The notes beneath the pieces were generated by a model that was not told where the DNA came from, did no database searches, and worked only from the letters and a program-made list of their open reading frames with translations. A DNA stretch of 64,000 nt, taken from positions 687,068 to 751,067 of the forward strand of contig NZ_CBDIDC010000011.1 of the NCBI RefSeq assembly GCF_965277525.1, written 5' to 3'. Numbering within the stretch: position 1 is the stretch's first letter; every line of letters starts with the position of its first letter. The translations under genes were made by a program, and so were the position numbers. Shown in pieces: positions 1 to 13,523 of this stretch. This stretch comes from Flavobacterium sp. (GTDB taxonomy: Bacteria > Bacteroidota > Bacteroidia > Flavobacteriales > Flavobacteriaceae).

Positions 1-2
1 AC

Positions 3-383
3 ACATGGATTCAAGGTCCGAATGGAGAAAAAATTACTAATGTAGATGAATTAAATGTAATTTTAAGTAAATACAGTTCTCAATGGAGAGATTTTTATAA
101 AAGTAAAAATGGAAAATTGACATTAGTGATAAAGGGTTGTAATGCAGGGAATGAAGAAGGTGGAGATGGAATAACAAACAAATTAAATGTTGGCAAAAAT
201 TTTACCTACGATAAAAAAGGTCTTACAATAATTGCTGCTAGTGGATTTTACCTAACTTCTCCTAATTTTTTAAGTAGGGTAGGTATCGATTTTGAAGTTG
301 GGGTTAGTAGGTCAAGTTTATTTACCGATGGCACATGGAATGTATATTATAACGGTACTTTAATAAATAAATTTAATGATTAA
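3..383 (+). CDS. 3' end of a larger ORF entering from the left window edge; probable C-terminal toxin domain of a polymorphic toxin
   Basis: The frame of the 117..383 ORF stays open back to nt 3 (TWIQGPNGEKITNVDELNV...), with stop TAA at 381-383. A lipoprotein gene starts 5 nt later, the toxin-immunity layout seen repeatedly further right. No catalytic motif recognised. Confidence 0.4.
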   Translation, partial: TWIQGPNGEKITNVDELNVILSKYSSQWRDFYKSKNGKLTLVIKGCNAGNEEGGDGITNKLNVGKNFTYDKKGLTIIAASGFYLTSPNFLSRVGIDFEVGVSRSSLFTDGTWNVYYNGTLINKFND

Positions 384-388
384 TTAAA

Positions 389-811
389 ATGAAAATAAAA
401 AAGTTATTTAGTTGTGTTTTACTAATTACATTATTTAGCTCATGTAATGATGGAATCTTGAAGGATTCTGAAGTCAAAGAAGCGAAAGCAATTATTATAA
501 AATCTGGAGATAAAAATTTGTATGCAAGTTTATGTATTTACTATTATGAGAAAGGAGAATATGAATCGACACTTCCTTATTCCATGATTATGGCTTATAA
601 ATATAATGATAAGGATGCATACTATAATATTTATAAAGTTATTGTCCAAATTAATAGTAATGGAAATTCAGATTATAAAGCTGTTAAAAAATTAGATAAA
701 AACAGTAAAGAGTTTGCATTGGAGAATTTGACTAAAAGTGCTAATTTAGGTAGTATTAGTGCAAAAAAGGATTTAGAGAAGTACAATTTAAAAGAAAATA
801 TTAAACAATAG
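389..811 (+). CDS. small lipoprotein, putative immunity protein for the upstream toxin domain
   Basis: N-terminal signal peptide ending in a lipobox-like LFSSC. Tightly coupled to the upstream ORF and followed by a terminator hairpin. Confidence 0.5.
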   Translation: MKIKKLFSCVLLITLFSSCNDGILKDSEVKEAKAIIIKSGDKNLYASLCIYYYEKGEYESTLPYSMIMAYKYNDKDAYYNIYKVIVQINSNGNSDYKAVKKLDKNSKEFALENLTKSANLGSISAKKDLEKYNLKENIKQ

Positions 812-830
812 AAATTAAATAAAAATACCT

Positions 831-866
831 AAAAGCCACTTCATTATTACGGAGTGGCTTTTGGAT
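831..866 (+). terminator. rho-independent terminator
   Basis: aaaagccact (831-840) pairs perfectly with agtggctttt (853-862), with a 12-nt loop and a T-rich tail. Confidence 0.6.
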
Positions 867-960
867 TTTATGAAGTTGCTACATGTTTAGCGAAACAATC
901 TTTGAATTATCAATATTCCCAACCTCTGTCGAGTTTGCCAGTATGAAAATCTTCACTAGC

Positions 961-1058
961 ATTAATTTCCTTGAAAACTAGAGCATTTCCAAACTTTTCA
1001 TTATTCTCTGGAAGAGTTCTTCAAAGGAATTGATATTCCTAACTCAAAAAGAAAGTAA
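961..1058 (+). pseudogene. decayed 3' remnant of an XRE-family HTH gene, a paralog of 10100..10363
   Basis: 975-1058 translates to KLEHFQTFHYSLEEFFKGIDIPNSKRK*, matching ...KICRVLEISLEEFFKGIDLPKSKIKS* of the intact gene. Upstream similarity (INFLEN vs ANFELK) lies in another frame and is broken by stops. Confidence 0.5.
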
Positions 1059-1077
1059 TAATCAATCATATAAATAA

Positions 1078-1114
1078 ATATGCGTCGATCCTGCGGAGCA
1101 GGATTAACGCATAT
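1078..1114 (-). terminator. terminator hairpin downstream of the 1119..2753 gene
   Basis: Nested perfect stems: atatgcgt/acgcatat (1078-1085 / 1107-1114) and atcctgc/gcaggat (1088-1094 / 1098-1104). It lies immediately after the minus-strand stop codon, with a T-rich run on the minus strand. Confidence 0.55.
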
Positions 1115-1118
1115 CTAA

Positions 1119-2753
1119 CTATTTAAGGTTTATCAAATTTTTTAATTTGGAAATTATTGATGCTGTTATCGGCACTCCTTCATAATCAATATACTTTTGC
1201 TGAGTATTCTGTCTATTGAAATAATCCATAAGTTTAGCCATTTCTACGTTTGAGTTATTAATGCCAGAAATGATTTTCAAAATATCTTCAACGTCAAACG
1301 ATAATAGTGGTAATATTTCATACAAGCTTACAATTTCATCCAGCGCATATTTTGGCAATTCCACCGCTACAAGTTCTGGTATCATTTCAACCAAATCCGC
1401 ATCCGTTTCCAATGTCAATGCATCAACCTTAACATTGGTCTTTACACCATGCTCTAATATAATGCGGTTCATGGTCTCAACTACCAAAGCTTCATCCTTG
1501 TCTTCACAAAGCAAAGCATCATATACGTAAAGTACAGAAACGCCTTTAGCGTTCAAATCTCTGATTACATTGCTCATGACACTCACTTCAACGCCAAACA
1601 TCTTTTGAGAGGTAATCTTATGACCGTGTTCGTTTTTATCTCTGTAAATCCTTACCAGCATATCAGTTTCGCATCTTGAATAGTATTCAAAAAGCGGAGA
1701 TTTTCTCATGTCATCCCATTTCATATTGAAAAAACTTAAGTGCTCAACCTTAACTTTTTTGAGCTCAATGTTTGCTTGTTCCGCTACTAATCCGTGTGTG
1801 AGGTAAGTGAGTGAACCATTATACAGCTTGATGGCAATATTGGGATGCAGTGCGCTGTAATCGCATTCTGTAAGCTTTTTACCGTCAATGGTAATCTGCT
1901 CTCGTATCCAAGCTGGCATCAAGGTAAAGCTATCCACGACACGACCACCGCTGTGCATGTCGCCAGCACTTGGAATCATAAAGCCACGAGAAGTCAGGAA
2001 CTCAAAGAGCCTGATATTGTCCTCAACAAAGCTCATGTTATCAGCATCTATCCAGTAATCATTTAGATGCTTGTTTCTCATTGTCAGGATTTTGCCCTTT
2101 TTGGTACAGCGACCCTCCTTGACCAATTGTTTGCCAATAGCCAGCAGTTCTGAGCTGGTTGGCAAATCAATCTTTGGATACATTGCAATGAGGTTCGAGC
2201 AGATTGGATTCTGAAAAGCCTCATGTAACTGCTTATAATACATCTTATTGCGAGTACGGATAATTCCTGTATCCTTGATGAAGTACTCGACCAGACCCGC
2301 TTTGAGATAAGTCTGGGTCAATCTAAACTTTTTGGACTGCACGCCAGCTTGATAGCTGTTATCAACTTCAACAAATGCGCCTTTTATTGTTCCAGCAGTA
2401 AGCACATCAATTATTTTAGTATAGATAAAGGTATTGTCAGTATTTCGGCTTTGCTCATGCAGTAAAACTGAATTAAGCGGTTTCCATTTGGAATCTGTAT
2501 AGTAGGTGCTTGCCAGATTAGAAAGGAACACCAGACACTTTTCCACTGCTGTATCAATATTAGGGTCAACAGCTTTAAGCATGGCTTTAGAAACGTATTT
2601 TCGCAGGTTGTACTGGGCTTTCTTTGGTATTAGGATAGAATTTACGTTGGGGAAACGCAGTGCTGATTCTGACAGCTTGTAATCGTTTTGGAGCAATTCT
2701 AAGTCTCCAGTATCGCCAGTAAAGGCAATGTAATCTTCATTTTTGAGGTTCAT
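1119..2753 (-). CDS. 544-aa hypothetical protein with right-hand polymerase palm-like motifs (family A/B DNA-polymerase-like); function unproven
   Basis: Long uninterrupted ORF. Ordered motifs are SGGRVVD (aa 268-274), CDYSALHPNI (297-306), KVEHLSFFN (336-344) and LYVYDALL (408-415). These resemble GGxV / DxxSLYPSI (or DYSQIELR) / KxxxNSxYG / DTDS (or VHDE). Confidence 0.4.
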   Translation of the reverse strand: MNLKNEDYIAFTGDTGDLELLQNDYKLSESALRFPNVNSILIPKKAQYNLRKYVSKAMLKAVDPNIDTAVEKCLVFLSNLASTYYTDSKWKPLNSVLLHEQSRNTDNTFIYTKIIDVLTAGTIKGAFVEVDNSYQAGVQSKKFRLTQTYLKAGLVEYFIKDTGIIRTRNKMYYKQLHEAFQNPICSNLIAMYPKIDLPTSSELLAIGKQLVKEGRCTKKGKILTMRNKHLNDYWIDADNMSFVEDNIRLFEFLTSRGFMIPSAGDMHSGGRVVDSFTLMPAWIREQITIDGKKLTECDYSALHPNIAIKLYNGSLTYLTHGLVAEQANIELKKVKVEHLSFFNMKWDDMRKSPLFEYYSRCETDMLVRIYRDKNEHGHKITSQKMFGVEVSVMSNVIRDLNAKGVSVLYVYDALLCEDKDEALVVETMNRIILEHGVKTNVKVDALTLETDADLVEMIPELVAVELPKYALDEIVSLYEILPLLSFDVEDILKIISGINNSNVEMAKLMDYFNRQNTQQKYIDYEGVPITASIISKLKNLINLK

Positions 2754-2776
2754 TGTGATATTCTCTTATTCTCTTT

Positions 2777-2851
2777 CCATCACTTGGATGGATTATTGTC
2801 TCTTAGATTGGCTTGGTAAGAGAAGCTGGGGCATGACTCCCAGCAACCAAG
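2777..2851 (-). promoter_or_regulatory. structured 5' leader of the polymerase-like gene (two stem-loops)
   Basis: ccatc/gatgg (2777-2781 / 2787-2791). A nested hairpin has cttggt/accaag (2812-2817 / 2846-2851) enclosing gctggg/cccagc (2825-2830 / 2839-2844). Both lie between the ATG (2753) and an AT-rich promoter-like stretch. Confidence 0.35.
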
Positions 2852-3045
2852 GTTTTAATGAGTTGTACTCTCAATTATTGCTTTTCATAAATATACTTCA
2901 AATCAAAAATTAGTCAAGAGTTTTGGATACCTAATTTTATAAAATAGTTGATATTAATTTGGTGTTCCACATTTACAATAGCGCAAACTGCGCATACTAC
3001 TATATAGCACAATATCCTTGTATCCCTTATTATTACTGGTATTAT

Positions 3046-3148
3046 ATAGAGATTATTCTATTATATATTTAAGTAACATATATGATAGAGGATGAAGAGA
3101 TATAGAAAGAAATAGATAAATTAATAAATAAATAGATAGATATATAGA
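3046..3148. repeat. AT-rich tract with 7 copies of ATAGA; candidate iteron or replication-origin region
   Basis: ATAGA starts at 3046, 3085, 3102, 3112, 3132, 3136 and 3144, inside an almost G/C-free stretch of the 1.1 kb non-coding region. Confidence 0.45.
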
Positions 3149-3442
3149 TTAAGAAAGTAATTTACTAATACATTACTATAGTACTATACTTGTATACGTA
3201 GTCCTTTATGTTCCTAAAACACTGTTATAAACCTCCCAAATTGCAACACACGAGCACGTAAGCGTTAACAACGCTTTGAAAGGGAATAATCTGCCTCAAC
3301 AGACCACCCCATGGTCGCGGAGCCCTTCCCACCCCTGTAAACACTAAGTTTTAGAGCCTAGTTACCGCCGAGTAAACATTCCAAAAGTGTACTTCTAGCC
3401 ACCCGTAGCTCTGATATGTCCGTAAACTGCGCTGGCAAAAAT

Positions 3443-3486
3443 TCAGAAAAAAAATTTCTGAGGGAAAAATGGGAAAAAATTTCTGA
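3443..3486. repeat. A/T-tract repeats: palindrome tcagaaa-N5-tttctga plus a direct repeat of aaaatttctga
   Basis: aaaatttctga occurs at 3451-3461 and 3476-3486. tcagaaa (3443-3449) is the inverted complement of tttctga (3455-3461). Confidence 0.5.
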
Positions 3487-3537
3487 AAAAAAATCTCGGA
3501 TTCAATTTTTAGACCATATTTATAGTAAAAAGAGACC

Positions 3538-3684
3538 ATGAGAATAATAATAAGCTTATCCCAATTAAAACAAGTACTTAAGACCCAAAAAGTCAGATAC
3601 CCGCTATCATTCAAAGCTGGCAATTTCACGGGAAAGGAACTTGAAGAGTTTTCACGATTGATACAATCCAAGGAACGAGGCTAA
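3538..3684 (+). CDS. 48-aa small ORF (MRIIISLSQLKQVLKTQKVRYPLSFKAGNFTGKELEEFSRLIQSKERG), not in the ORF track; possible small DNA-binding or excisionase-like protein
   Basis: ATG at 3538 and TAA at 3682-3684. The stop is embedded in a strong terminator hairpin. The gene sits directly upstream of the recombinase genes on the same strand. Function is a guess. Confidence 0.3.
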   Translation: MRIIISLSQLKQVLKTQKVRYPLSFKAGNFTGKELEEFSRLIQSKERG

Positions 3685-3698
3685 AACCTCGTTTTTTT
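3674..3698 (+). terminator. rho-independent terminator
   Basis: aacgagg (3674-3680) pairs with cctcgtt (3687-3693) and is followed by a T7 run. Confidence 0.6.
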
Positions 3699-3887
3699 GT
3701 GCTCCTCAAATTCAAAAGTCTGTGAGCCCAGGAAAACCAGGATTTTTCTTGTTTAATCCAAAATAGACCTGGACATTTGTTTCACTTTCTACTAAACCTG
3801 AAAGTAACTCTGTAAACCCAATAAAATCAATGGTTTACATCAACTAGAAAAACAACCCGTTTCAGATACATATATTAAGGTATAAAA

Positions 3888-4484
3888 GTGAAACTTAAAT
3901 CAAGCAAAATGGCATTAAAAGGACAAAAGACAACGAGTGATTTTTTAGAGTGGGACAAGATGCAGACTATCGTTTTGAAACTGGAGCGTGATAATGATTT
4001 GAAATTTGCGCTACTTATTGCAACGGGTTCTTACATTGGTCTTAGAATTTCAGACCTGCTTCAACTTAGATGGAATCAGGTTTTGAATCAGGATTATTTC
4101 ACGATTATCGAGAAGAAAACCAAGAAGACCCGCAAAATAACCATCAACCCAGAATTACAGATTATCCTGAACCGTTTGTTTGTTCAGCTCCAAGCCAATG
4201 AAAATGACTTGATGTTTGTGAACCGATTTGGCGATAAGCCGTTCAGTATCCAATATGTGAACAGCAAACTCAAAGACATTTTTGCTAAATACAAGGTAAG
4301 AGGTCAGTACTCCAGCCACTTTATGCGCAAAACACTTGGACGCAGAGTTTGGGAAGTGAACAAGTACAGTGACCAAGCATTATTGTTATTATCTCAACTA
4401 TTTAACCATTCTAGTGTTTCTACAACAAAAATTTACTTGGGTATTAGAGAGCAGGAAATCAGTAACTTATATCTTAGCGTGTAA
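3888..4484 (+). CDS. minimal tyrosine recombinase (catalytic domain only, 198 aa)
   Basis: The full catalytic set is visible: GLRISDL (Arg I), HFMRKT (HxxR), FNHSS (His) and TTKIYLG (Tyr). Only ~45 aa precede the catalytic domain. GTG start. Confidence 0.7.
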   Translation: MKLKSSKMALKGQKTTSDFLEWDKMQTIVLKLERDNDLKFALLIATGSYIGLRISDLLQLRWNQVLNQDYFTIIEKKTKKTRKITINPELQIILNRLFVQLQANENDLMFVNRFGDKPFSIQYVNSKLKDIFAKYKVRGQYSSHFMRKTLGRRVWEVNKYSDQALLLLSQLFNHSSVSTTKIYLGIREQEISNLYLSV

Positions 4485-4546
4485 AATATAGTGTTGTATT
4501 TGCGTAAATAAAGTGAAAATATCTTGTGTAATTGAAAAATATTTGT

Positions 4547-4554
4547 TACATTTG
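4547..4554 (+). promoter_or_regulatory. Bacteroidota-type -7 box (TAcaTTTG) for the 4581 gene
   Basis: tacatttg lies 27 nt upstream of the ATG, with a TTG at 4524-4526 at about the expected -33 spacing. Confidence 0.3.
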
Positions 4555-4580
4555 CAGTGTAGAATTGAAAATACAACAAT

Positions 4581-5324
4581 ATGGATACTCAACTTAAGAA
4601 TTGGACAAGCAAAGCTTTAGTGTTTTTTGGAATGTGGCTCTGGAGAGAAAAGGAATATGGGCATGCGATGTTGTGTTTGCACGGTCCGCAATTGGGATTA
4701 AAAATAGGAACCCAATTAAATATTACTTGGAACGATGTAATTAATACCGAAGATGGCTTACGCCAAAATGAAGTAAACTTAAGGGATAAAGAAGCACATG
4801 TTCGAGATATTAGTAATTTCTTTGGGCAATTACTTGAGATGGCATACTATGAGCTATCAATAGAGTCATTAATTAAATCTGCTGATGATTCTATTTATTT
4901 GAATTACAAGACTGGAAAGCCATTGACCTCTTCAACCCTTAATCGTGAATTACAGGCTCATGTCAAAAGATTTGAATCTGAAATCAAAAACAGGACAGGT
5001 CTTATATTGGATTATAAGCCGTTAAAAACAAATGCTTTCGAGATAGCTTGGGCAATGGACATGGTCAAAAAATATAACTATTCCAAACAGGTTTTCATTG
5101 CTGTATCAAATTTTATGGGACATAGGACTTTGAAAGATACCATACAGCTATTGGAACTAGAACCTGTCGAAAAAATTGAATTTGATTTTGATAATGTGTC
5201 TGACATACGTGAATTTGTTGATTTCAATACGTTCGACTTCAGAAAAAACTTAAAGAAATTTCTGGATTTCAAAGGCTATATTGACACAGATGGTCAATGG
5301 TACATACCACAATACTTAAAATAA
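4581..5324 (+). CDS. integrase-like protein with degenerate catalytic residues (probable inactive recombinase paralog)
   Basis: GLKIGTQLNITWNDV aligns with the GLRIsDLlxLxWxxV box, but Lys replaces Arg I. MGHRTLKDTIQLL resembles the LGHxxxxTTxxY box but has no Tyr. No HxxR is seen. Confidence 0.4.
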   Translation: MDTQLKNWTSKALVFFGMWLWREKEYGHAMLCLHGPQLGLKIGTQLNITWNDVINTEDGLRQNEVNLRDKEAHVRDISNFFGQLLEMAYYELSIESLIKSADDSIYLNYKTGKPLTSSTLNRELQAHVKRFESEIKNRTGLILDYKPLKTNAFEIAWAMDMVKKYNYSKQVFIAVSNFMGHRTLKDTIQLLELEPVEKIEFDFDNVSDIREFVDFNTFDFRKNLKKFLDFKGYIDTDGQWYIPQYLK

Positions 5325-5419
5325 ATTAGTTTTTTTTAACGGATTATTTATTCGGTGCAATACCCGAAGCAGGATTCTTATGCCCAAAAATTACGTGTTT
5401 AACCCAAAAATTAAAGCTT

Positions 5420-5983
5420 ATGCAAAACTTAGAATCGCTGTTCAAGTCTTTTGAAACTGGTATCAGGAGCGTAAAAGCGACCAAGCCGAAAGACTATCTC
5501 AATAAGATAGGTCTGGATTATGCGGAACTGAGAATAGGCTTTAATTCAGGACAGTTTCATCACAATAAAAGCCAAGGAGTCAAAGATGATTTTGAAGCTT
5601 TGGGAGTGCTTAAAAAGAGCGATGCGGGTGTAAGAAAGGAAGACCTGACAGCTTATACCGTTTTTGGAAGATACGGACTGATTTTTCCATTGTTGAGTAA
5701 GAAAAACGAGATTGTAAACTATTTCGCTTTACGGTTTGATTTGGATGCCCCTAAGGAAGAATACCTCAACAGCGAAGGCATTTATCCAGCTTATCCAAAT
5801 CCTCTGACTAAAAGGCTCTATATCGTGCCGACAGTTATTGACTGTGCAAGCCTGATGCAGTCCAAAGCACTGGAGAATAGGGATGCCGTGATTGCACTGC
5901 ACGACGGAGCGTTACTGCCTCAGCATCTGGAAGCTATTAAAACCCTGCACGAATTGGAAGAAATAATAATCATTAAACGTTAA
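5420..5983 (+). CDS. Toprim-like (degenerate) domain protein, possible primase-associated subunit
   Basis: The C-terminal LYIVPTVIDCASL ... AVIALHDGALLPQHLEAI resembles the Toprim E...DxD strand pattern, with the acidic residues partly replaced. A 4-nt gap separates it from the downstream P-loop gene. Confidence 0.3.
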   Translation: MQNLESLFKSFETGIRSVKATKPKDYLNKIGLDYAELRIGFNSGQFHHNKSQGVKDDFEALGVLKKSDAGVRKEDLTAYTVFGRYGLIFPLLSKKNEIVNYFALRFDLDAPKEEYLNSEGIYPAYPNPLTKRLYIVPTVIDCASLMQSKALENRDAVIALHDGALLPQHLEAIKTLHELEEIIIIKR

Positions 5984-5987
5984 GCAC

Positions 5988-7667
5988 ATGCAAAATATAA
6001 GAACACAAATACAAAATATAAGACCAGAACTGCCCGTAAGCATGATTCAGCTCCCTGAGGGTCACAGCATGAATGATATGTGGATAAACTACGGAACCGA
6101 TGGAATTCTGGAGCTTTTACAGAATCCAGAAGCAGAAAAAGCAGTCCAGTCACTTGAAATTCATAACGATTACAAAATCAGCTATAAAGGAAAAACAGGA
6201 ACATTTTATGCCATTGGAAGTCTGCCGATGGATTTGGGGAACCTTAGAATTTCACTACAGATTGTTGAAAAGGAGAGCCAGAAGAAACATCGAGTGAAAA
6301 TCGACCTGTTTGATTTTACCAGTGTTGAGAACCAATGCAGGGAACTCAGCGAGAAACAAGGTTTTGACGGTAATTTGCTTGAAGCTGATTTGAAGCAATT
6401 CACAGACCTGTTGGAAGACTACAGAGAAATAATCTTCAACGCTGAAATGAACCCCGTAACCGACCAATTTTCAGAAAAGGAACTTACGCCCCAAGCATAT
6501 GAAAAAGCGATAGAATTCCTCTCTAAGCCACGTGTTTTAGAACATGTAGATAAACTGCTGGGACAAAGCGGAATTGTTGGAGAAGAAGACAACAGGCTTT
6601 TATTGTTTGTACTGGCGTCCAGCTACAAAATGCCATATCTGATGCATGGACTCGTACAGGGAAGTTCAGGAGAAGGCAAGTCACACCTCATCAACGCTAT
6701 AGCAGACTGCATGCCACAGGAAGATGTAATGAACATGACCAGAATTACCAGCAAATCGCTTTATCATTACAGAGATAAAGAGCTGATGAACAAACTTATC
6801 ATTGTTCAGGATTTTGACGGATTGGATGAAGAAGCGCAATTTGCATTCAGAGAAATGCAGACAGCTAAGTTTCTGACCAGTTCCACGGTGGTTAAGGATA
6901 TGCAAGGCAATACCAGAGGAAAGATGAAAACGGTACAGTCACATTTTGCCAGTCTTATCGCTACTACAAGAGCAGAGGTCTATTATGACAATATGAGCCG
7001 TTCGGTAATCTTGGGAGTAGATGAGAGTCTGGAGCAGACACTTCGCATCATCAAGGCGCAGAATCTTAAAAACACTGGTCTCAGTAGTACCGAGAGCGAA
7101 CAGCAGGCAAAACAGCTACTTAGAAATTGTATGAGAGTTTTAAAGAGTTATGAAGTGGTTAATCCCTTTGCCGATAAGCTTATGTTACCGCTGGAGGCTA
7201 AAATGCTCCGAAGATTAAACAGCCAGTTTCAAAATTTTGTATCCCAGATAGCCATTTTAAATCAGTATCAACGAAAAAAAGATGATAAAGGAAGACTCAT
7301 CGCTACTGAAGAAGATGTAAGAAAAGCCGTTGAGATATTCTTTAGTTCCATCATTATCAAAGTAGATGAACTCGATAAAAGTACAAGACAGTTTTTTGAA
7401 AATCTCAAAGGATTTGTCAGAAGCCAGCCAAACGGAACAACATACCGATTCACAACCCGTGAGATACGGCAAGAGCTCAATATCAGCAAAACATCGGCTT
7501 TCAAATACATGCAGACCCTGCAGGAATTGGAATATATACAAGCCGTAGAAGGTTCGCCAAACAAAGGTTTTAAGTATGTAATCAGCTACTGGGACAATAT
7601 GGAAAAGCTGAAAGCCAAAATAAAGACAAACATGGCAATGCAGTTAGACCAGTTGAAAATCAGTTAA
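5988..7667 (+). CDS. P-loop NTPase, putative replicative helicase or primase-helicase C-terminal (SF3/D5-like) protein
   Basis: Walker A GSSGEGKS, Walker B LIIVQDFDGLDE, and a C-terminal winged-helix-like tail. This context is typical of plasmid and phage replication modules. Confidence 0.55.
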   Translation: MQNIRTQIQNIRPELPVSMIQLPEGHSMNDMWINYGTDGILELLQNPEAEKAVQSLEIHNDYKISYKGKTGTFYAIGSLPMDLGNLRISLQIVEKESQKKHRVKIDLFDFTSVENQCRELSEKQGFDGNLLEADLKQFTDLLEDYREIIFNAEMNPVTDQFSEKELTPQAYEKAIEFLSKPRVLEHVDKLLGQSGIVGEEDNRLLLFVLASSYKMPYLMHGLVQGSSGEGKSHLINAIADCMPQEDVMNMTRITSKSLYHYRDKELMNKLIIVQDFDGLDEEAQFAFREMQTAKFLTSSTVVKDMQGNTRGKMKTVQSHFASLIATTRAEVYYDNMSRSVILGVDESLEQTLRIIKAQNLKNTGLSSTESEQQAKQLLRNCMRVLKSYEVVNPFADKLMLPLEAKMLRRLNSQFQNFVSQIAILNQYQRKKDDKGRLIATEEDVRKAVEIFFSSIIIKVDELDKSTRQFFENLKGFVRSQPNGTTYRFTTREIRQELNISKTSAFKYMQTLQELEYIQAVEGSPNKGFKYVISYWDNMEKLKAKIKTNMAMQLDQLKIS

Positions 7668-7777
7668 AAGAACACGTGAAGCCCTGTAATTACAATTGAT
7701 ATAACGCCAGTGTTCACAGTTTTGTAAAGTGCGCCTAAGGAACATTTACAGATGATGATTCTAAAACCAGAGAAAAG

Positions 7778-8695
7778 ATGAAAAAAACAATACAGACCCC
7801 TGCATTTCAAAACCTTTTAAATGAGTTTGACAGCTATGTAAAAGTGAAGAATTATAAACAGGGAAAAGGCACAATGTACCAGAATGCCGTTTCGGAATTC
7901 CTTATCTGGCTGGAAGCATCTGGAATTACCGCTATCAAAAGCGTAACAGGTAAAGAATCAGTAAGTTATTTTGAATATCTGATAAAAAGACCCAAACACC
8001 GAGGAAACGGAACACTGGCAGGAAAGACCATAAAATTTCATCTGTTTGCTTTAGGGCTCTTTGTTTTGAATCTGCTGGAGAACAGGCATATTGAAAACGC
8101 ATATTACATTCCAAGCTATTCAGGAGAAAATGGAAAAGCCCGAAATGCCCTGAGCGTTGATGAAATCAGGAATATATATAAGCATTGTGTAAGTGATTTA
8201 CAGCGGGCTTTGTTATCAGTTGCTTACGGATGCGGGCTTCGAAGGTCGGAAATTACAGCTTTGAATGTAAGGGATATACAGCTGTCAAAAGGTATTTTAA
8301 TTGTTAGGAACGGAAAAGGAAGCAAAAGACGTGAGGTTCCTATGAGTGATATGGTCGTTGAATATCTCAGAAAATACATAACTGAAGAACGTTACCAGAA
8401 AGTAATAAGCAAAGATTTAATACAGGATGCACTTTTTATCCACGATAACGGAAAACAGATGAATGGCGAATACCTCAACAATATGCTAAAGAAAATAATT
8501 GAACAAACCAATGATTATCAGCTTATACAGAAAGAGATAACGCTTCACTGCCTCAGACACAGCATTGCCAATCATTTAATGGAAAAGAACGCAGGAATAG
8601 ATTTTATACGTGGATTTTTAGGTCATTCGGGAATCAATACAACCTATATCTATGCGGTTCGGAACAAAAAACGAAAACCAGTAACAACCTTTTAA
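7778..8695 (+). CDS. tyrosine recombinase (XerC/D-like integrase)
   Basis: N-terminal SAM-like domain, then GLRRSEITALNVRDI (Arg I), HCLRHS (HxxR) and LGHSGINTTYIYA (His...Tyr). Confidence 0.85.
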   Translation: MKKTIQTPAFQNLLNEFDSYVKVKNYKQGKGTMYQNAVSEFLIWLEASGITAIKSVTGKESVSYFEYLIKRPKHRGNGTLAGKTIKFHLFALGLFVLNLLENRHIENAYYIPSYSGENGKARNALSVDEIRNIYKHCVSDLQRALLSVAYGCGLRRSEITALNVRDIQLSKGILIVRNGKGSKRREVPMSDMVVEYLRKYITEERYQKVISKDLIQDALFIHDNGKQMNGEYLNNMLKKIIEQTNDYQLIQKEITLHCLRHSIANHLMEKNAGIDFIRGFLGHSGINTTYIYAVRNKKRKPVTTF

Positions 8696-8706
8696 GCAAT
8701 CAGCCT

Positions 8707-9573
8707 ATGACCAAATTAACAATTGAAAATTTCCTGCTCCAACATTACAGCATACAGACCGTAAAGAGTTATTTATTTGCTATAAACCATTTTTTAAAAC
8801 GGAACCCCAAAGCTAAACGTTACAAATACAGGAACATCGTGCAGTATATGGAAGAAATCAGCCAAGAACAACCCAATGGAAAATATCGAGTTGTCATTTT
8901 ATCAGCAATCAAAAAATATTATGATTATCTGGTTATGAGCGGATACAGAACAGACCATCCGTGCAGGAAGCTCAATATCAAGGTTAACAGCAATCAGGCT
9001 GTTCAGGTTCAGGATTTGTTTAGCTCAGAAGAGCTTGAGCTTCTCTTGACACGTGAGAATCGATACGAGAATTTGGATACCAGAAACAACGTTCTTTTGA
9101 ATCTGCTGATTTACCAAGGTTTAACCAGTGACGAAATCATAAAATTGAATGTTCAGGACATTGATTTGGACGCAGGAACAATTTATATCAAAGCATCCAG
9201 TAATTTGAGCAGACGCAAATTATCATTGTTAGCTAAACAAATATTGCTATTTTCCAAATACATCACCGAAGTCAGACCCAAAATGCTCAGAGGAGCAACC
9301 GACAAACTGATTATCGGCAAACTGGGCAAGCCTATTACAGTTAACAGTATCCATGCAATGATTGAGCCGTTAAAGCCTTTGTTTCCAGATAAGAACCTCA
9401 ACCCCAGAACTATCCGAATGAGTGTTATTTGCAACTGGCTCAATGAGAAAAAGCTGGCTTTGGAACACGTTCAGGAACTCGCAGGACATAAATGGCCTGG
9501 AACCACAGAGAAGTATATCAAAGCGGACAGCCTGCAACAGCGTGAACTGATAAATAAATACTTTCCGATTTGA
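8707..9573 (+). CDS. tyrosine-recombinase paralog with Arg I replaced (GLTSDE)
   Basis: Same fold pattern as 7778..8695, but GLTSDEIIKLNVQDI has Thr where Arg I is expected. RTIRMS replaces HxLRHS. AGHKWPGTTEKYI keeps His and Tyr. It starts 11 nt after the upstream gene. Confidence 0.65.
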   Translation: MTKLTIENFLLQHYSIQTVKSYLFAINHFLKRNPKAKRYKYRNIVQYMEEISQEQPNGKYRVVILSAIKKYYDYLVMSGYRTDHPCRKLNIKVNSNQAVQVQDLFSSEELELLLTRENRYENLDTRNNVLLNLLIYQGLTSDEIIKLNVQDIDLDAGTIYIKASSNLSRRKLSLLAKQILLFSKYITEVRPKMLRGATDKLIIGKLGKPITVNSIHAMIEPLKPLFPDKNLNPRTIRMSVICNWLNEKKLALEHVQELAGHKWPGTTEKYIKADSLQQRELINKYFPI

Positions 9574-9580
9574 ATAAAAA

Positions 9581-9600
9581 AAGAGGGAAAAATCCCTCTT
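9581..9600 (-). terminator. terminator between convergent genes
   Basis: aagaggga (9581-9588) pairs with tccctctt (9593-9600). The T-run is on the minus strand, serving 9616..9987. Confidence 0.5.
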
Positions 9601-9615
9601 TAATAGATATTAATG

Positions 9616-9987
9616 TTATTTGCATTTGTCAATTTCAGCATCAACATATGAACGCAGTTCTTCTGCATAACTGTCGGGCAAATCATTATCTTCTATCACA
9701 TTTCGAACTACCTGCGGTACATATATCGCTTGGGTGCTCTCAACATAATAGAGTTCTTTTTCTCGTTTTGTTTCATTGCTGAATGATTTTGCAAATGCAT
9801 ATTGTTCGCAATATTTCTGAACTATCGCTGTTTGCGCCCACGTTTTTAGCTCATCCATGCTTTTTGTTTTCGGATGGTCTTTGTCCCACTCTCTGTCATA
9901 GTGTTTGCTTAACATGTAGGCTCCTAGGCAAAGAAGCGTTACACCTACCAAAAATATTCTAACAAGAATTGTTAACGGTTTATTCAT
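9616..9987 (-). CDS. small N-terminally membrane-anchored protein
   Basis: A hydrophobic helix (LTILVRIFLVGVTLLCLGAYML) is followed by a charged soluble domain, and the gene has its own terminator. Confidence 0.5.
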   Translation of the reverse strand: MNKPLTILVRIFLVGVTLLCLGAYMLSKHYDREWDKDHPKTKSMDELKTWAQTAIVQKYCEQYAFAKSFSNETKREKELYYVESTQAIYVPQVVRNVIEDNDLPDSYAEELRSYVDAEIDKCK

Positions 9988-10041
9988 TTTTGTAGTTTTT
10001 AGTTGATTTAAAATTCAGGCAAATATATTAAAAATTCTATT

Positions 10042-10067
10042 TTATAGTGTACTAAATTATAGAGTAC
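10042..10067. promoter_or_regulatory. direct repeat TTATAG(T/A)GTAC x2 in the divergent promoter region; candidate XRE operator
   Basis: ttatagtgtac at 10042-10052 and ttatagagtac at 10057-10067, about 35 nt upstream of the XRE start codon. Confidence 0.3.
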
Positions 10068-10099
10068 CACAAAAAAGACAAAATATTGAGATTTGGAGT

Positions 10100-10363
10100 A
10101 TGAAAGATTCTACCCAAACAAACAATATAGAAGAACTTAATGCAATTGCATTGAGACTTAAAGAACTGAGAAAAGCAAAAGGATATTCCAATTATGAGCA
10201 TATTGCATTTGCTTTGGAAATGAGCCGTTCAGCTTACTGGAGATTAGAAACTGGAGCTAATTTTGAATTAAAAACACTTATTAAAATTTGTAGAGTGCTG
10301 GAAATTAGCCTTGAAGAGTTTTTTAAAGGAATTGACCTGCCAAAATCAAAGATAAAAAGCTAA
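10100..10363 (+). CDS. XRE-family helix-turn-helix transcriptional regulator
   Basis: LKELRKAKGYSNYEHIAFALEMSRSAYWRLETG is a typical Cro/CI-type HTH. Confidence 0.8.
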   Translation: MKDSTQTNNIEELNAIALRLKELRKAKGYSNYEHIAFALEMSRSAYWRLETGANFELKTLIKICRVLEISLEEFFKGIDLPKSKIKS

Positions 10364-10427
10364 AAAAAATTATAAAACTGTCCTATTTGTATCCCCCGCC
10401 AATACTGGGAACTTTAAAAATTACAAT

Positions 10428-10470
10428 AAAACTCTAAGTCATAACTGTTTGATTTAGAGTTTTTTGTTTT
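10428..10470 (+). terminator. hairpin and T-run downstream of the XRE gene
   Basis: aaaactctaa (10428-10437) pairs with ttagagtttt (10454-10463) and is followed by ttgtttt. The loop is large (16 nt). Confidence 0.4.
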
Positions 10471-10535
10471 AGTATCTGTCAAAATTTACTGTCCTATTTT
10501 ATTTTAGACCCTAAAATTACCTTCGCAAAAGAAAG

Positions 10536-10775
10536 TTGAATGTTTCAACCTTCATTGAAAGAATCATTTTTCAATTTGCAAACGATAATAAAATCAACGA
10601 TATGAATAATTTTACATTTTTTTTAGGTTTTATTCTGATAATAACCTCAATGTTTATGGCATTTCCAGAAAGAGCAAGAAAAGCTACTAAATGTCTAATC
10701 CAATTAGTCGGAGCTTTGTTTATCAGTAAAGCATTTCAAGCAATAACAGCTTATTTCAACCGAAATAAACCGTAA
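10536..10775 (+). CDS. small membrane protein (more likely starts at ATG 10602)
   Basis: The track start is TTG. The internal ATG gives MNNFTFFLGFILIITSMFMAF..., with one clear TM helix. Confidence 0.3.
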   Translation: MNVSTFIERIIFQFANDNKINDMNNFTFFLGFILIITSMFMAFPERARKATKCLIQLVGALFISKAFQAITAYFNRNKP

Positions 10776-10819
10776 TGATTATTTTTTATAAATGAAAAAT
10801 ATTACATTTGAATCGCTAG

Positions 10820-11785
10820 GATATAGAGAAAAGGACGTTCTTACTACATTATAGAAACTTTGCAGAACCTTATAAGTATAAGTACAACGGGAAAGAGCTC
10901 CAAGATGAGAGTATTGGCGGGAATCAGCTGAATTGGTATGACATGGAAGCTCGAAATTATATGCCTGACATTGGTCGTTGGGGTAATATGGATAAACTGG
11001 CTGAAAGTTTCTTTGTTTTATCTCCATATAATTTTTCAAATAATAATCCAGTATATTTTTCTGACTCTAGTGGTCTTTCTCCAGATGGACCAAAAGAAGC
11101 AATTGCTTCAACTATTGTAAGAAATGGAAGAGTAATAGAACATCGAGACGATGGCGACCCAGGTATTTATTTAGCTGATTTTGGCTGGCAAGTGGGTGGA
11201 TCGACTCAGGGTTTGTCATTATTAGGTTTTGAAAAACCAGGTGAAACTTATAACGTAGGCGATAGGATTATGTTTGATTTATCTGGTTATGGTACAACAA
11301 GTCAGCCTAAAAGAGCATTAGGTGTAACTTATGCTATTGGTGGTGCTTATGATATAACTGGAGCTTGGGAAGCTTTTTTTACAGAGTTGTTTTCGGAACT
11401 AGGTGATGATTCTCCAGAAACAGCACTTGCATTTGCAGTTGTGACGAAAGGAAAGGTAAAACCAAAACTTGCCGTTAGATTATTAGAAAATTTACCTACC
11501 CAGATTCATCATTTTGCAACAAATAAACATTCAAAATATTCAAAACAAATGGCAAAGATAATAGAGCAATATAATTTAAAATTGAGTGGTTCTTGGAACA
11601 AAGGTGCGTTACCACATTTGGGACGGCACCCGAATGCATATCATGATTTTGTTCTTGAAAGCATGCAAAAAGCTAGTATGGAGGCAGGAAATGACAAAGC
11701 AAAATTCTTAAAATTGTTTGACCAATATGTCAAACAACCCGTTATTGAGAATCCAAATTTATTAAGAAAATCAGGCTGGGAATAA
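10820..11785 (+). CDS. orphan Rhs/YD-repeat C-terminal module: core-end motif plus an HNH/EndoVII (AHH/SHH-like) nuclease toxin domain; 5'-truncated
   Basis: The frame is open from 10820 with no upstream rhs body. It reads YKYKYNGKELQDE...YDMEARNYMPDIGRWGNMD...SPYNFSNNNPVYFSDSSGL (Rhs core end), then IHHFATNKH...LPHLGRHPNAYHDF. The internal ATG at 10943 is the track start. Confidence 0.7.
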   Translation, partial: DIEKRTFLLHYRNFAEPYKYKYNGKELQDESIGGNQLNWYDMEARNYMPDIGRWGNMDKLAESFFVLSPYNFSNNNPVYFSDSSGLSPDGPKEAIASTIVRNGRVIEHRDDGDPGIYLADFGWQVGGSTQGLSLLGFEKPGETYNVGDRIMFDLSGYGTTSQPKRALGVTYAIGGAYDITGAWEAFFTELFSELGDDSPETALAFAVVTKGKVKPKLAVRLLENLPTQIHHFATNKHSKYSKQMAKIIEQYNLKLSGSWNKGALPHLGRHPNAYHDFVLESMQKASMEAGNDKAKFLKLFDQYVKQPVIENPNLLRKSGWE

Positions 11786-12384
11786 TGAGTAAGTATTTTT
11801 TTTTAAGTTGGAAGAATTCAACACAAACAGCAAGTGCAATTTATGAAATCGAACATCAGATTGCACATGAGCTAATCCCTGAATTAGAAGGAAAAGAATC
11901 ACTGCCGTTTAACTTTAATTTAAAACGAATTAGAGAAACAAAAGATGATATAATCATAGATGATAATTTGGATGAATTACAAGAAATTTGGCTGGATTAC
12001 CTACCAAATAGCCTTGCTTGGCCTTTAATGTCCCAAAAATTAAAATTGGTAGTGCAAGAAAACCTTACAGAAAATGAAGGTGTTGACTGGCTTGATTGTA
12101 AAGTTAATTATGGAAATGAAGAAAGAATATATTATATTTTAAGATTCAACAAAATATTGGATGTTTTGGATATGACAGAAACAAGTTTTGTTAGAGGTAC
12201 TGACCATATAATAAGACCAGTTTTTTCATATTCAAAAGTTAGAAATCTTAATATTTTTAGCAAACCAGCATATCAATATTTATGGAGAATTACATCGGGA
12301 CTGTATGTTAGTGAGAAATTAAAAAAAGAAATACAAAAAATGAAATTGACAGGACTTGATTTTTCAAAAGTACGAGTGATTTAA
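11785..12384 (+). CDS. putative cognate immunity protein
   Basis: Its start overlaps the toxin stop (TAATG). The N-terminus and size are similar to the protein that follows the second AHH/SHH-like toxin (25851..26543). Confidence 0.55.
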   Translation: MSKYFFLSWKNSTQTASAIYEIEHQIAHELIPELEGKESLPFNFNLKRIRETKDDIIIDDNLDELQEIWLDYLPNSLAWPLMSQKLKLVVQENLTENEGVDWLDCKVNYGNEERIYYILRFNKILDVLDMTETSFVRGTDHIIRPVFSYSKVRNLNIFSKPAYQYLWRITSGLYVSEKLKKEIQKMKLTGLDFSKVRVI

Positions 12385-12401
12385 ATTATTGTAGTAGAAA
12401 A

Positions 12402-12887
12402 ATGAAAAGCCTACCTAATAATAATGAACCTTTAGAATTGAGTATTAATAAGCAATATTATGTTATTGATGCTCTTTATTTAACTGAGATAAAAAGTGAA
12501 TTCTTAAAAGCTAATATTTTGCCGAAGGATATTAGAAACGAAGTTTTTCCTTATACAGATACTCCTTTTGCACTATATAAACCAAATGAGAGTACTTTTT
12601 ATATAAATCAAATTATAAAAGTAGACTATGATGAAGTTGTTTTAGAAGATTTCTCTTTTTTTTCGACGGATACAGGATTAATAGTCTTTATTACAGAAGA
12701 TATATTAGTAGAATTTTTAAAAGATTTCAATTATGAAGATTTAGTAGATTCAGAAAATGAATTAATAGATGAAAAATATTGGAAACAATTAGTTAGAAAA
12801 TTTGACACCACAGATGTTGGATTAATTTTAGCAGATGTAAATTCAGAAAATGATTTTGATGGAAGTGGAACTTATAGGGTCATTTAA
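12402..12887 (+). CDS. hypothetical acidic protein, possible additional immunity protein
   Basis: Same strand, 17 nt after the upstream gene, and followed by a strong terminator. Confidence 0.4.
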   Translation: MKSLPNNNEPLELSINKQYYVIDALYLTEIKSEFLKANILPKDIRNEVFPYTDTPFALYKPNESTFYINQIIKVDYDEVVLEDFSFFSTDTGLIVFITEDILVEFLKDFNYEDLVDSENELIDEKYWKQLVRKFDTTDVGLILADVNSENDFDGSGTYRVI

Positions 12888-12930
12888 TATCCTAAGTATC
12901 CTAATCAACAATAAAATAGAATTAAAAAGT

Positions 12931-12960
12931 AAAACCTCGCCATTTGGCGAGGTTTTTTTA
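12931..12960 (+). terminator. rho-independent terminator
   Basis: aaaacctcgcc (12931-12941) pairs with ggcgaggtttt (12946-12956), then a T-run. Confidence 0.7.
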
Positions 12961-13130
12961 TGTTTTAGAATATGTAAAAACTCCAATGAGAGCTACGTTT
13001 TTTTTGGAAGTATGTCAAACTTATAGTCCAACTGAAAACAAATGTTCTTGATATTCTTGCAAAAAAGATGCCTTACCTTTTTATGTGAATAAATAGAAAA
13101 CTCACTGAAAGTTCGAGTTTTTTTTGATTT

Positions 13131-13445: not shown

Positions 13446-13523
13446 CTAATTCTGGATAAAAGTGAGCAGTATAAATGAACTCAAAAAGGTGTCTAAAAAG
13501 TAGTTTAAAAGTATAAAATTATT

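Follow-up and report, generated by a model that had tools for sequence, protein, structure and literature searches.

Introduction

Rhs and other polymorphic toxins diversify by replacement of their C-terminal tips, which leaves arrays of orphan tips behind, and how new tips arrive has been open since a model of 2009. That model proposed a circular intermediate for rhs C-terminal displacement, inserted into the core by one crossover (Jackson et al. 2009, PMC2935791); it invoked RecA-dependent homologous recombination in Enterobacteriaceae, and no integrase was known to accompany Rhs. Integrase-like genes have been noted, without analysis, near rhs loci of bee-gut bacteria (Steele et al., PMC5727410), and rAID-1 of Bacteroidales has one XerD-like recombinase, with the mechanism unknown (Ross et al., 10.1101/471110; PMC12247911). 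The families Tn554, SE, GInt, and RIT, with the gene sets IntA-Tfp-IntB-Srap or TnpA-B-C, come from Gammaproteobacteria or Firmicutes (PMC10214605). Here, we describe a locus in 64,000 nucleotides of Flavobacterium sp. DNA (NCBI RefSeq assembly GCF_965277525.1, contig NZ_CBDIDC010000011.1, positions 687,068 to 751,067; this whole stretch is called the window), in which a block of recombinase, primase-helicase-like, and polymerase-like genes lies inside an rhs toxin locus. With a probability of roughly 0.6, we read window positions 1 to ~10890, together with DNA past the left edge, as an integrated element of ~11–12 kb, integrative and plasmid-like, that belongs to Flavobacterium and other Bacteroidota and delivers rhs tips. 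The window holds most, not all, of this element: attL lies to the left of the window, and the right junction is at ~10874, within an rhs core fragment. The block had been singled out by a prediction made from the letters of the window and their open reading frames (ORFs), hereafter the original prediction, as a possible self-replicating mobile module of pipolin-like logic, with a polymerase-like gene of its own.

Results

A four-gene core resides in rhs toxin loci

The invariant core of the element consists of the genes for a relic primase of 187 amino acids (aa), a 559-aa P-loop protein with a winged helix-turn-helix (wHTH), and two tyrosine recombinases of 305 and 288 aa (Table 1). A reverse survey with the 559-aa protein as query yielded 80 metagenome loci and four F. 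johnsoniae records (individual loci are designated L and a number). Where a copy of the 559-aa gene had at least 2.1 kb of sequence behind it, homologues of the 305-aa and then the 288-aa recombinase followed in every case (66 of 66), over 41–100% identity. This core sits in rhs toxin loci, between a full-length rhs gene with its immunity gene and a 5′-truncated orphan toxin. Full-length rhs genes were found upstream in L010, L102, L106, L108, L131, and L135, and an rhs-core motif on the same strand lay no more than 6 kb downstream of the second recombinase in 25 of the 31 loci that extend at least 3 kb beyond it, against a background of 0.086 per 6 kb.

The arrangement is illustrated by F. 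johnsoniae (CP140160.1), where an rhs gene of full length and an immunity gene are followed by genes for a 214-aa protein, a 48-aa ORF, a 191-aa recombinase, the relic primase, the 559-aa protein, the two recombinases, a 123-aa protein, an XRE regulator, and a 60-aa ORF, and then by an orphan DUF4329 tip with Imm-NTF2-2. In the window, as the original prediction had it, the module interrupts a toxin/immunity island, with a toxin tip and immunity gene on its left and orphan toxin/immunity genes on its right. The toxin fragment at the left edge of the window corresponds in position to the tips of full-length rhs genes in L008 (the same site in F. pectinovorum), L102 (an F. johnsoniae locus), L010, and L135; it would likewise be such a tip, as well as cargo of the element. 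The 140-aa immunity-like protein encoded behind it had no significant Pfam match. We take the toxin island to be what the element specifically targets, and probably also carries, and not a chance neighborhood.

Orphan toxins beside the element share one start point

We surveyed junctions with the F. johnsoniae rhs core as query. At ~39 orphan-type junctions, nearly all of which adjoin an element, the first residue with rhs homology is always the K of KYKYNGKELQDE. The shared orphan start encodes KYKYNGKE and has the DNA sequence AAGTATAAGTA, found at position 10874 of the window. Orphans elsewhere in the same arrays have scattered start points, and this difference between a fixed junction residue and variable, non-adjacent orphans points to a site-specific event, not to recombination anywhere in the core.

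In the DNA, orphan-type junctions consist of a non-coding arm and then AAGTATAAGTACAACGG; the arm includes the motif GTTCTT, which is followed by ~25 nt and then TTTGYAAANCCTTAT. Full-length rhs genes have ordinary coding sequence up to the same AAGTATAAGT that follows the arm at junctions, and within one locus the two copies share 8–23 identical bases from AAGTATAAGT on. The GTTCTT motif is kept even where the 559-aa protein is only ~41–47% identical. In the window, the arm ends at 10873, the core begins at 10874, and homology to L008 runs from 831 to 10885; the terminator block at 831–894 is the left limit of DNA homology to related loci.

The block is repeated, permuted, and found as an apparent circle

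Diverged tandem units of the order core-tip-immunity-element were found in L184 (two copies, 90.6% identical, with unrelated tips), L115 (93.7%), L183, and L010. The four-gene core is 95% identical between the window and L106, despite another accessory module and other downstream genes in the latter, and this homology stops exactly at the stop codon of the second recombinase. Past that point, the window, L001, L008, and F. johnsoniae carry the pair of 123-aa and XRE genes, which in L010, L108, and L135 lies instead at the polymerase 3′ end, a circular permutation. The block also adjoins unrelated toxin tips in several species. Collectively, the unrelated tips, the spread over species, the tandem copies, the permuted order, and the related circular assembly described below support mobility of the block, which the original prediction had proposed. 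A second unit in L135 consists of a tip, an immunity gene, 136-aa, 155-aa, and XRE genes, and a second copy of the polymerase-end palindrome, all without the backbone; no true empty rhs site was found.

One metagenome contig among 187 loci, L153 (9,246 bp), has an exact 122-nt terminal overlap, giving an apparent circle of 9.1 kb. Its genes code for a fragment of the rhs core end that carries a 339-aa tip, for a 485-aa immunity-like protein, RelE/RelB, an XRE protein, an intact DnaG-type primase/P-loop protein (the 559-aa homologue, ~47% identical), and for both recombinases. Its ~1 kb of non-coding DNA ends with AAGTTCTTTGAA, 45 nt ahead of the rhs fragment. Judged by its content and its ends, L153 would be the circular form predicted for the element, with the caveat that an identical tandem duplication would assemble alike. 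The RelE/RelB toxin-antitoxin pair, at 2582–3134 next to the XRE gene, would fit plasmid-like maintenance.

These observations bear directly on a different view of the locus, in which the block is a resident, non-mobile cassette platform of rhs loci, integron-like or rAID-like, that takes up or shuffles toxin/immunity cassettes at a fixed site. Its constant position in rhs loci upstream of co-oriented orphan toxin/immunity genes fits that view, as do the uniform orphan boundaries behind a conserved non-coding arm, which are like cassette recombination sites. Moreover, rAID-1 of Bacteroidales has an XerD-like recombinase upstream of orphan arrays (10.1101/471110), and the window has a comparable order, with recombinases at 7778–9573 and then co-oriented orphan toxin/immunity genes at 10943–12887 of G+C content 0.25–0.29. 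The whole block, however, is tandemly repeated with tips in the four loci named above, a unit of block and tip assembles as a circle, and 95%-identical blocks lie beside unrelated flanks. The block further contains replication-type genes, with a relaxase in L120, and the new cassettes expected between the full-length gene and the block were not seen. We consider a resident platform unlikely.

Recombinases and the primase-helicase relic

The two core recombinases differ in their catalytic residues. The 305-aa family keeps R-H-R-H-Y throughout. In the 288-aa family (the window protein and 73 homologues), which is always the partner of a preceding 305-aa gene, Arg-I is replaced by Thr, Lys, Ser, or Gln, and the His of HxxR by Gln, Arg, or Lys, with Arg-II, His, and Tyr kept. 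This systematic loss with retention of Tyr suggests that the pair is an obligate heteromer with divided catalytic roles. Matches to NCBIfam recomb_GmtY were insignificant (0.014–0.043).

Where the original prediction counted two tandem pairs of recombinases, the second is this pair, and the first proved to be a single recombinase, of 198 aa, followed by a degenerate and optional 247-aa protein. The latter reached E 0.078 with an integrase model, which is below threshold, lacks the catalytic residues, and is missing from L008, L010, L102, and L106. In L004 and L100, the position of the 198-aa recombinase is taken by a small serine resolvase, which by analogy suggests a resolvase-type role.

The other two core proteins are homologous to parts of one fused 894-aa protein with a P-loop domain, encoded by L153. 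This protein matches Zn_ribbon_DnaG (9.7e-14) and Toprim_2 (3.5e-10), that is, a CHC2 zinc finger and a Toprim domain. The original prediction of a degenerate Toprim-like protein was borne out: the 187-aa protein, which by itself gave a weak DNA-primase PHROG match (0.0024), is without the zinc finger, the catalytic Glu, and the DxD, as are 41 of 41 separate homologues. The protein described there as a helicase-like P-loop protein gave weak P-loop and wHTH matches, and its homology is to part of the fused primase/P-loop protein; we assign it by this homology as the C-terminal half of what distant relatives encode as one fused, primase-helicase-like protein. PDB sequence searches with the 559-aa and 187-aa proteins returned nothing useful. 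A strict link between loss of the primase motifs and gain of a polymerase or HUH module was considered and rejected, as L113 and L117–L120 have the split relic with other modules.

The 544-aa protein has a predicted family-A polymerase fold

We then considered the 544-aa protein, proposed to be polymerase-like in the original prediction. It had no Pfam or NCBIfam match (E up to 0.1) and none by PDB sequence search; 0 of 61 diverse relatives matched curated sequence models at E up to 0.01; the family profile found nothing among PDB sequences; and its hhalign alignment to the polymerase domain of E. coli Klenow was mis-registered and insignificant. An AlphaFold model was built from 94 sequences, down to 33% identity, with a mean predicted local distance difference test score (pLDDT) of 86.9 and a predicted template modeling score (pTM) of 0.80; an earlier model from a shallow alignment of close relatives had a pLDDT of 52 and was unusable. 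Foldseek against the PDB placed family-A polymerases in all of the top 50 hits, including Aquifex, Bacillus, and Taq Pol I, T7 DNA polymerase, Pol theta, and the apicoplast polymerase, with a best value of 3e-5 and template modeling (TM) scores of only 0.28–0.36. Against the viral models of BFVD, the best matches were 400–450-aa proteins of uncultured phages named "putative DNA polymerase I" (4e-14 and 6e-13, TM up to 0.69). The model thus confirmed, at the level of predicted structure, a Pol I-type (family-A) DNA polymerase fold.

The family is large, with 678 matches in a word-indexed search and 474 clusters at 50% identity in an exhaustive one, and its named members are nearly all from Flavobacterium or other Bacteroidota. 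Residues 38–442 form the conserved core, and the final ~100 residues are variable. Among the invariant residues in 61 representatives, which are 29–61% identical to the window protein, are D298 (in DYSALHPN), K335, and D412 (in YVYDAL). DYSALHPN resembles the motif A sequence DYSQIELR, and in the model D298 is at a strand end, K335 is on a fingers helix, and D412 caps a beta-hairpin, where motif C would be expected. A few family members (P0137, P0280, P0314, and others) carry HNH, GIY-YIG, or NUMOD homing-endonuclease domains, and other members have C-terminal domains of helix-turn-helix (HTH) type and are annotated as transcriptional regulators. A distant 605-aa homologue in F. marginilacus (L006, region 8822–19518) has a C5 DNA methylase on one side and a type I restriction-modification system on the other, with a small resolvase and a CHAT protein close by, a defense-island-like context unlike that of the window.

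Departures from the canonical motifs raise the question of whether the protein is an inactivated polymerase fold, reused to bind the origin as an initiator or to act as a regulator. In motif C, YDA stands where HDE is expected, with Ala in place of Glu; the Glu five residues past the motif A Asp is an invariant His; no motif B was recognizable; and no 3′-5′ exonuclease domain was detected. The variable C-terminal domains are DNA-binding-like, some relatives bear the regulator annotation just mentioned, and in related elements the slot of this gene is held by an HUH-like nickase. Both putative metal-binding Asp positions and the fingers-helix Lys are nevertheless invariant across the 61 representatives, and the motif C of single-subunit RNA polymerases, which have the same fold, likewise contains just one Asp. 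The phage relatives, moreover, look like the polymerase of their phage, and one is encoded beside a separate exonuclease subunit. We find an inactive protein rather improbable and infer polymerase activity in the window copy.

Those phage relatives, 32–55% identical, were encoded on 13 IMG/VR contigs. In the five contigs inspected, phage genes lay on both sides of the polymerase gene: portal genes in 5 of 5, large-terminase genes in 3 of 5, and a tail gene in 1 of 5. The relatives encoded in contigs with such genes are 33–55% identical. Phage contig L088 also encodes a separate DNA polymerase exonuclease subunit (phrog_403, 2.9e-56). The 544-aa family therefore resembles what would be the polymerase subunit if a phage Pol I were split in two.

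The element itself might then be a phage satellite or degraded prophage that spreads by hijacking a helper phage and merely has its attachment site in rhs; polymerase, XRE repressor, primase-helicase, and integrases would all stem from phages. VEIMEs and tycheposons do combine an integrase with a primase/helicase and sometimes a polymerase (PMC9618062; 10.1101/2020.12.28.424599), homing-endonuclease domains and genuine phage contigs both occur in the polymerase family, and XRE alleles, which diverge between otherwise similar elements, are exchanged like phage immunity regions. The element, however, had no capsid, terminase, small-terminase, or packaging-related PHROG match; none of the matching viral contigs shows its architecture, those contigs being whole phages; and the relaxase or HUH nickase modules of relatives indicate a plasmid-like biology. 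A satellite origin, which we regard as quite improbable, would concern the route of transfer alone and is compatible with rhs-tip delivery.

The polymerase module is a separable accessory

The 544-aa gene is not tied to the rest of the block. In a survey of 79 genome loci with polymerase relatives, the recombinase pair and the 559-aa gene adjoined the polymerase in a minority (L001, L007, L008, L010, L015, L019, and L046). In F. ginsengisoli, the polymerase module lies next to prs in the company of a large serine recombinase and has neither the recombinase pair nor the helicase-like gene, and elsewhere the module occurs with cargo such as a cation-efflux pump and a TonB receptor. Conversely, just two loci of the 559-aa survey, L108 and L135, had the polymerase. 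The polymerase is missing from most relatives and also occurs alone, and therefore it is not a hallmark of the element. The module, which comprises the polymerase, its leader, the iteron/AT-rich region, the 48-aa protein, and the small recombinase, is a separable replicon-like accessory.

Between the immunity gene and the relic primase, relatives have different modules in the same slot. It is filled by the polymerase replicon in the window, a 214-aa HUH-like protein in F. johnsoniae, a MobA/VirD2 relaxase (2.7e-32) in L120, and a resolvase with a C5 methylase in L113. The 214-aa protein (L102, 7424–8068; 12 copies in related loci) has the invariant motifs WSFFxTVAY, GxHNHxV, and YxxK in FYxSK, which we read as HUH nickase motifs; it had no Pfam or PHROG match, and PDB sequence search gave nothing useful. 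Its N-terminal segment is HTH-like, and its gene overlaps the start of the 48-aa ORF. The relaxase gene of L120 lies at 3526–5150 with a small ORF upstream. From these modules, part of the element family is probably mobilizable by conjugation.

The reading that a pipolin-like "self-synthesizing" element is defined by its polymerase and bounded by an XRE remnant and an XRE gene, essentially that of the original prediction, is thus hardly tenable: the polymerase fold and the Xer-like recombinases are there, and ~55 nt of an XRE 3′ end at 1005–1058 resemble 10310–10363, yet the polymerase belongs to family A and not to piPolB, the target is rhs and not a tRNA gene, the supposed co-occurrence of polymerase homologues with recombinase pair and helicase fails in both directions (F. 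ginsengisoli; slot swaps), and the homology to L008 exceeds both XRE features. The XRE repeats were accordingly rejected as att sites, as homology to this same-site locus spans 831–10885 and homology to other loci likewise runs past the repeats. An XRE remnant on the left is real, and shorter than originally drawn: instead of 961–1058 it covers ~1005–1058, fused to a remnant of another gene (913–1008, minus strand). It represents a decayed 155-aa/XRE pair, as in the 155aa-XRE-palindrome order without backbone of L135, which also argues against an att site.

The polymerase leader and the origin-like region

In 27 Flavobacterium-type loci, the 48-aa ORF lies 650–870 bp upstream of the polymerase gene and diverges from it. 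Its product had no Pfam or PHROG match; from its N-terminus alone, it is possibly a ribbon-helix-helix regulator. We analyzed the intervening non-coding DNA in an alignment of 20 polymerase upstream regions. The origin-like part has a promoter-like TTGACT-N16-TATATT and two boxes that are invariant in the 20 loci, TAGCGCAAACTGCGCATA at 2979–2996 and AAGTAACATATATGATAG at 3071–3088, which on the polymerase strand read TATGCGCAGTTTGCGCTA and CTATCATATATGTTACTT. Both boxes are duplicated together, in tandem, in L002, L010, and L011, and may be initiator binding sites. A related sequence, CGTAAACTGCGC, is present at 3421–3432. A stretch rich in A+T and in CTAT/ATAGA varies across the aligned regions; in the window, its ATAGA cluster (3046–3144; 7 copies in 121 nt) is unique in the 64 kb and was reached by 0 of 2000 shuffles. 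A/T-tract repeats follow at 3434–3493, and a GC-rich block occupies 3220–3435. This block was considered as a structured RNA and rejected, with folding z-scores of -0.37 and +0.32, no better than shuffled.

The leader of the polymerase mRNA is near-invariant over 115 nt. Its outer stem, CTTGGT/ACCAAG, is invariant, and the inner hairpin and a second hairpin vary in sequence with complementarity kept. A 7-nt TCTCTTA is complementary to TAAGAGA, located 13–18 nt ahead of the start codon, and this pair covaries in three lineages (GCTTCTA/TAGAAG and TCTTCTA/TAGAAGA). The leader had no Rfam match, and a conserved leader outside known Rfam families is a candidate new cis-regulatory RNA. We read it as translational control of the polymerase gene, which would be reminiscent of plasmid copy-number control. 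A second TAAGAGA copy near the first stem suggests alternative pairings.

The near-invariant block that follows the 48-aa ORF in the window also occurs in L010 (301–458) and L102 (8210–8300), with an extra copy in L010. Blocks of this type are kept with a tyrosine or a serine recombinase as neighbor, and with a polymerase or an HUH-like replicase.

Other features of the window

All ORFs listed in the original prediction were found where it placed them, including the 48-aa ORF and an intact XRE gene, as were the ATAGA repeats, the A/T-tract repeats, and the GC-rich block. Its statement that conjugation and capsid genes are lacking also held: conjugation, capsid, and defense-system genes had no match in the block in Pfam, PHROG, and defense-model scans, and PADLOC models returned generic HTH matches of the XRE protein alone. 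Megablast of the block against PLSDB plasmids and catalogued phages found no match. There is no tRNA gene in the window, and an Rfam scan of positions 1–12000 at a permissive threshold returned no family. G+C content is ~0.40 within the block and 0.26–0.30 in the flanks. The coordinates of all features are collected in Table 1.

Table 1. Features of the element and its right flank, in window coordinates
Position	Strand	Feature	Remarks
1..383	+	Toxin gene 3′ end, continuing beyond the left window edge	Frame open from base 3
389..811	+	Immunity-like lipoprotein gene (140 aa), after the tip	Same position as immunity genes of L102 and L135
831..894	+	Terminator-hairpin block ("A motif") behind the immunity gene	Common to L008, L010, and L012; repeated in L135
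913..1058		Decayed remnants: fragment of a 155-aa-like gene (913–1008, -) fused to an XRE 3′ end (~1005–1058, +)	
1080..1112		Imperfect palindrome ATGCGTCGATCCTGCGGAGCAGGATTAACGCAT at the polymerase gene 3′ end	Bidirectional terminator-like; kept in all polymerase-carrying loci
1119..2753	-	544-aa homologue of family-A (Pol I-like) DNA polymerases, exonuclease-less	Variable C-terminal domain of ~100 aa
2754..2870	-	Structured 5′ leader of the polymerase mRNA	Two hairpins and anti-start-region pairing; conserved
2871..3537		Origin-like non-coding region	Promoter-like sequence, boxes, ATAGA cluster, GC-rich block, A/T-tract repeats
3538..3684	+	48-aa small protein	Conserved in 27 loci
3685..3800		Near-invariant non-coding block between the 48-aa ORF and the small recombinase	TCCAGG/TCCTGG repeats
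3888..4484	+	198-aa tyrosine recombinase without N-terminal domain	Pfam Phage_integrase 4e-17
4581..5324	+	247-aa degenerate protein with a recombinase fold	Optional
5420..5983	+	187-aa remnant of the Toprim domain of a DnaG-type primase	
5988..7667	+	559-aa P-loop NTPase with C-terminal winged helix	
7778..8695	+	305-aa XerC/D-like canonical tyrosine recombinase	Phage_integrase 7.5e-34; R-H-R-H-Y intact
8707..9573	+	288-aa non-canonical tyrosine recombinase	Phage_integrase 3.5e-15
9616..9987	-	123-aa protein with N-terminal hydrophobic segment	Travels with the XRE gene
10100..10363	+	87-aa XRE-family regulator	XRE/HTH_3 match 3e-9
10536..10775	+	79-aa membrane-like small ORF	Same position in L008, L102, and L110
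10835..10873	+	Right-junction arm, element side: ACGTTCTTAC ... TTTGCAGAACCTTAT	
10874..10890	+	Proposed crossover core AAGTATAAGTACAACGG, coding for the rhs-core residues KYKYNG	Displaced orphan toxin starts here
10874..12384	+	Displaced orphan cassette: rhs core fragment with AHH-nuclease tip (ORF 10943–11785) and Imm11 gene (11785–12384)	

Direct repeats with TGTCCTATTT, ~110–130 nt apart, lie at 10372–10535, between the XRE gene and the membrane-like ORF. They are conserved between the window and F. johnsoniae (L102, 14496–14677) and may be operators or accessory sites of the recombinases. To the right of the Imm11 gene are further immunity-like genes. Beyond the orphan cassette (13524–15876, 22170–22751, and 22930–25845), the window contains an IS21-family element (IstA/IstB), an IS1-family transposase, and more rhs core fragments; these fragments have variable 5′ ends, and one carries a second AHH tip. 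The toxin locus of the window is a long toxin/immunity array interrupted by insertion sequences.

Discussion

The element reading given at the outset can be laid out as a sequence of steps. We infer excision, a site-specific crossover, autonomous replication, and a route of cell-to-cell transfer. The circular form would carry a 5′-truncated rhs fragment, consisting of the core end, a toxin tip, and an immunity gene, and the recombinase pair would act on two copies of AAGTATAAGTA, which encodes KYKY in the rhs core, recombining the one on the circle with the one in a chromosomal rhs gene. The tip of the element would thereby be fused in frame to the resident rhs gene and become its expressed 3′ end, and the old tip with its immunity gene would be left as a silent orphan downstream of the element. 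The primase-helicase-type protein, with polymerase, HUH, or relaxase modules, would replicate or transfer the circle; here, the polymerase module would let the excised circle replicate, with the phage-derived family-A polymerase performing the synthesis. An insertion of this kind would explain why orphans share one boundary, why an arm precedes it, why the block comes right behind the first tip/immunity pair, and why there are tandem arrays.

Several points weigh against this reading. For the window itself, no excised circle, empty site, or attL was seen, the left junction lying outside the window, and no circular contigs were found among the polymerase-carrying loci. The circularity of L153 depends on one overlap, and its rhs fragment begins closer to the DP motif than the KYKY site does, so that lineages would differ in their crossover site. 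Part of the uniformity of the orphan boundary could stem from the strong conservation of the sequence there. The window and L008, whose elements are otherwise 89–95% identical, have different tips and immunity genes, which needs either additional tip exchange or a tip that is not cargo. The window copy has no transfer genes. As to the polymerase, it matches no sequence profile, its motif C and missing motif B depart from the canonical pattern as described, and by tblastn no PLSDB plasmid and no catalogued phage carries a match.

A more far-reaching version, which we put forward tentatively and at somewhat less than even odds, is that a Bacteroidota family of self-replicating circles constitutes the carriers of Rhs C-terminal displacement, acting through a recombinase pair with one Arg-I-less member at a site of 8–12 bp in rhs core codons, and that the window element has captured a PolA replicon. 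If the element reading is right, carrier, recombinases, site, and replication system for Rhs tip replacement would all be supplied; on the more far-reaching version, the element would also be the first of the "self-synthesizing" integrative kind to rely on PolA instead of PolB. The window also brings to light a large family of minimal family-A polymerases, so far unannotated, that phages and integrative elements have in common. A close relative is present at ~6.007–6.029 Mb (CP140160.1/CP000685) in Flavobacterium johnsoniae UW101, a genetically tractable model, in which excision, integration, and toxin switching are directly testable. A literature search for rhs with tyrosine recombinase and primase found no description of such an element; its coverage was incomplete, and a prior description is possible.

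Among described systems, the 2009 displacement model is matched in the layout of the locus, with a full-length rhs gene, tip, and immunity gene followed by a displaced core fragment, tip, and immunity gene, and in the circle with core fragment, tip, and immunity gene, which is the content of L153 (circular by terminal overlap). In contrast to that model, a recombinase pair and replication genes would travel on the circle itself, the junction falls at a single short sequence and not at variable points of the core, and the hosts are Bacteroidota. Like rAID-1, the element is from Bacteroidota and has XerD-like recombinases upstream of co-oriented orphan arrays, with a conserved non-coding sequence before the cassettes. 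Unlike the element, rAID-1 has one recombinase and neither primase/helicase nor polymerase, whereas here there are two recombinases, of which one is non-canonical, and a primase-helicase relic, and the block itself is repeated and apparently circularizes.

With Tn554, SE, GInt, and RIT, which were compared by architecture alone from PMC10214605, the element shares an adjacent recombinase set in which a member may lack catalytic residues (Tfp/GinC), target-specific insertion and a circular intermediate, as proposed here, and a lack of transfer genes; those families have no primase-helicase partner and no rhs target. Pipolins (PMC7385651) are likewise integrative elements with Xer-like recombinases and their own DNA polymerase, but theirs is a primer-independent PolB and their target a tRNA, compared with an exonuclease-less, accessory family-A enzyme and an rhs target here. 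P4-type satellites, tycheposons, and VEIMEs (10.1101/2020.12.28.424599; PMC9618062) are similarly small, have tyrosine or serine recombinases, a primase/helicase, an XRE-type regulator, and sometimes a polymerase, and integrate into the 3′ end of a gene that they restore. They differ in their tRNA targets and packaging in phage particles, for which no related genes are present here, and the gene restored in our case would be a polymorphic toxin gene that receives a new functional tip.

Phage family-A polymerases share with the 544-aa protein the predicted fold, a DYS-type sequence resembling motif A, an Asp at the presumed motif C hairpin, and an occurrence in tailed-phage genomes with a separate exonuclease subunit; the 544-aa protein differs in having no Pfam or NCBIfam match, in YDA and the invariant His, in its shortened fingers, and in its variable, DNA-binding-like C-terminal domain. 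By these likenesses, multi-recombinase transposons, tycheposons, VEIMEs, and pipolins can be regarded as functional analogues. The element is thus of an integrative and replicative kind that is already known, and what is new lies in its target and cargo, its recombinase partner, and its polymerase replicon. Its unusual features are the rhs tips that serve as target and, probably, as cargo, the systematically non-canonical recombinase, the phage-type family-A replicon, and the candidate RNA leader.

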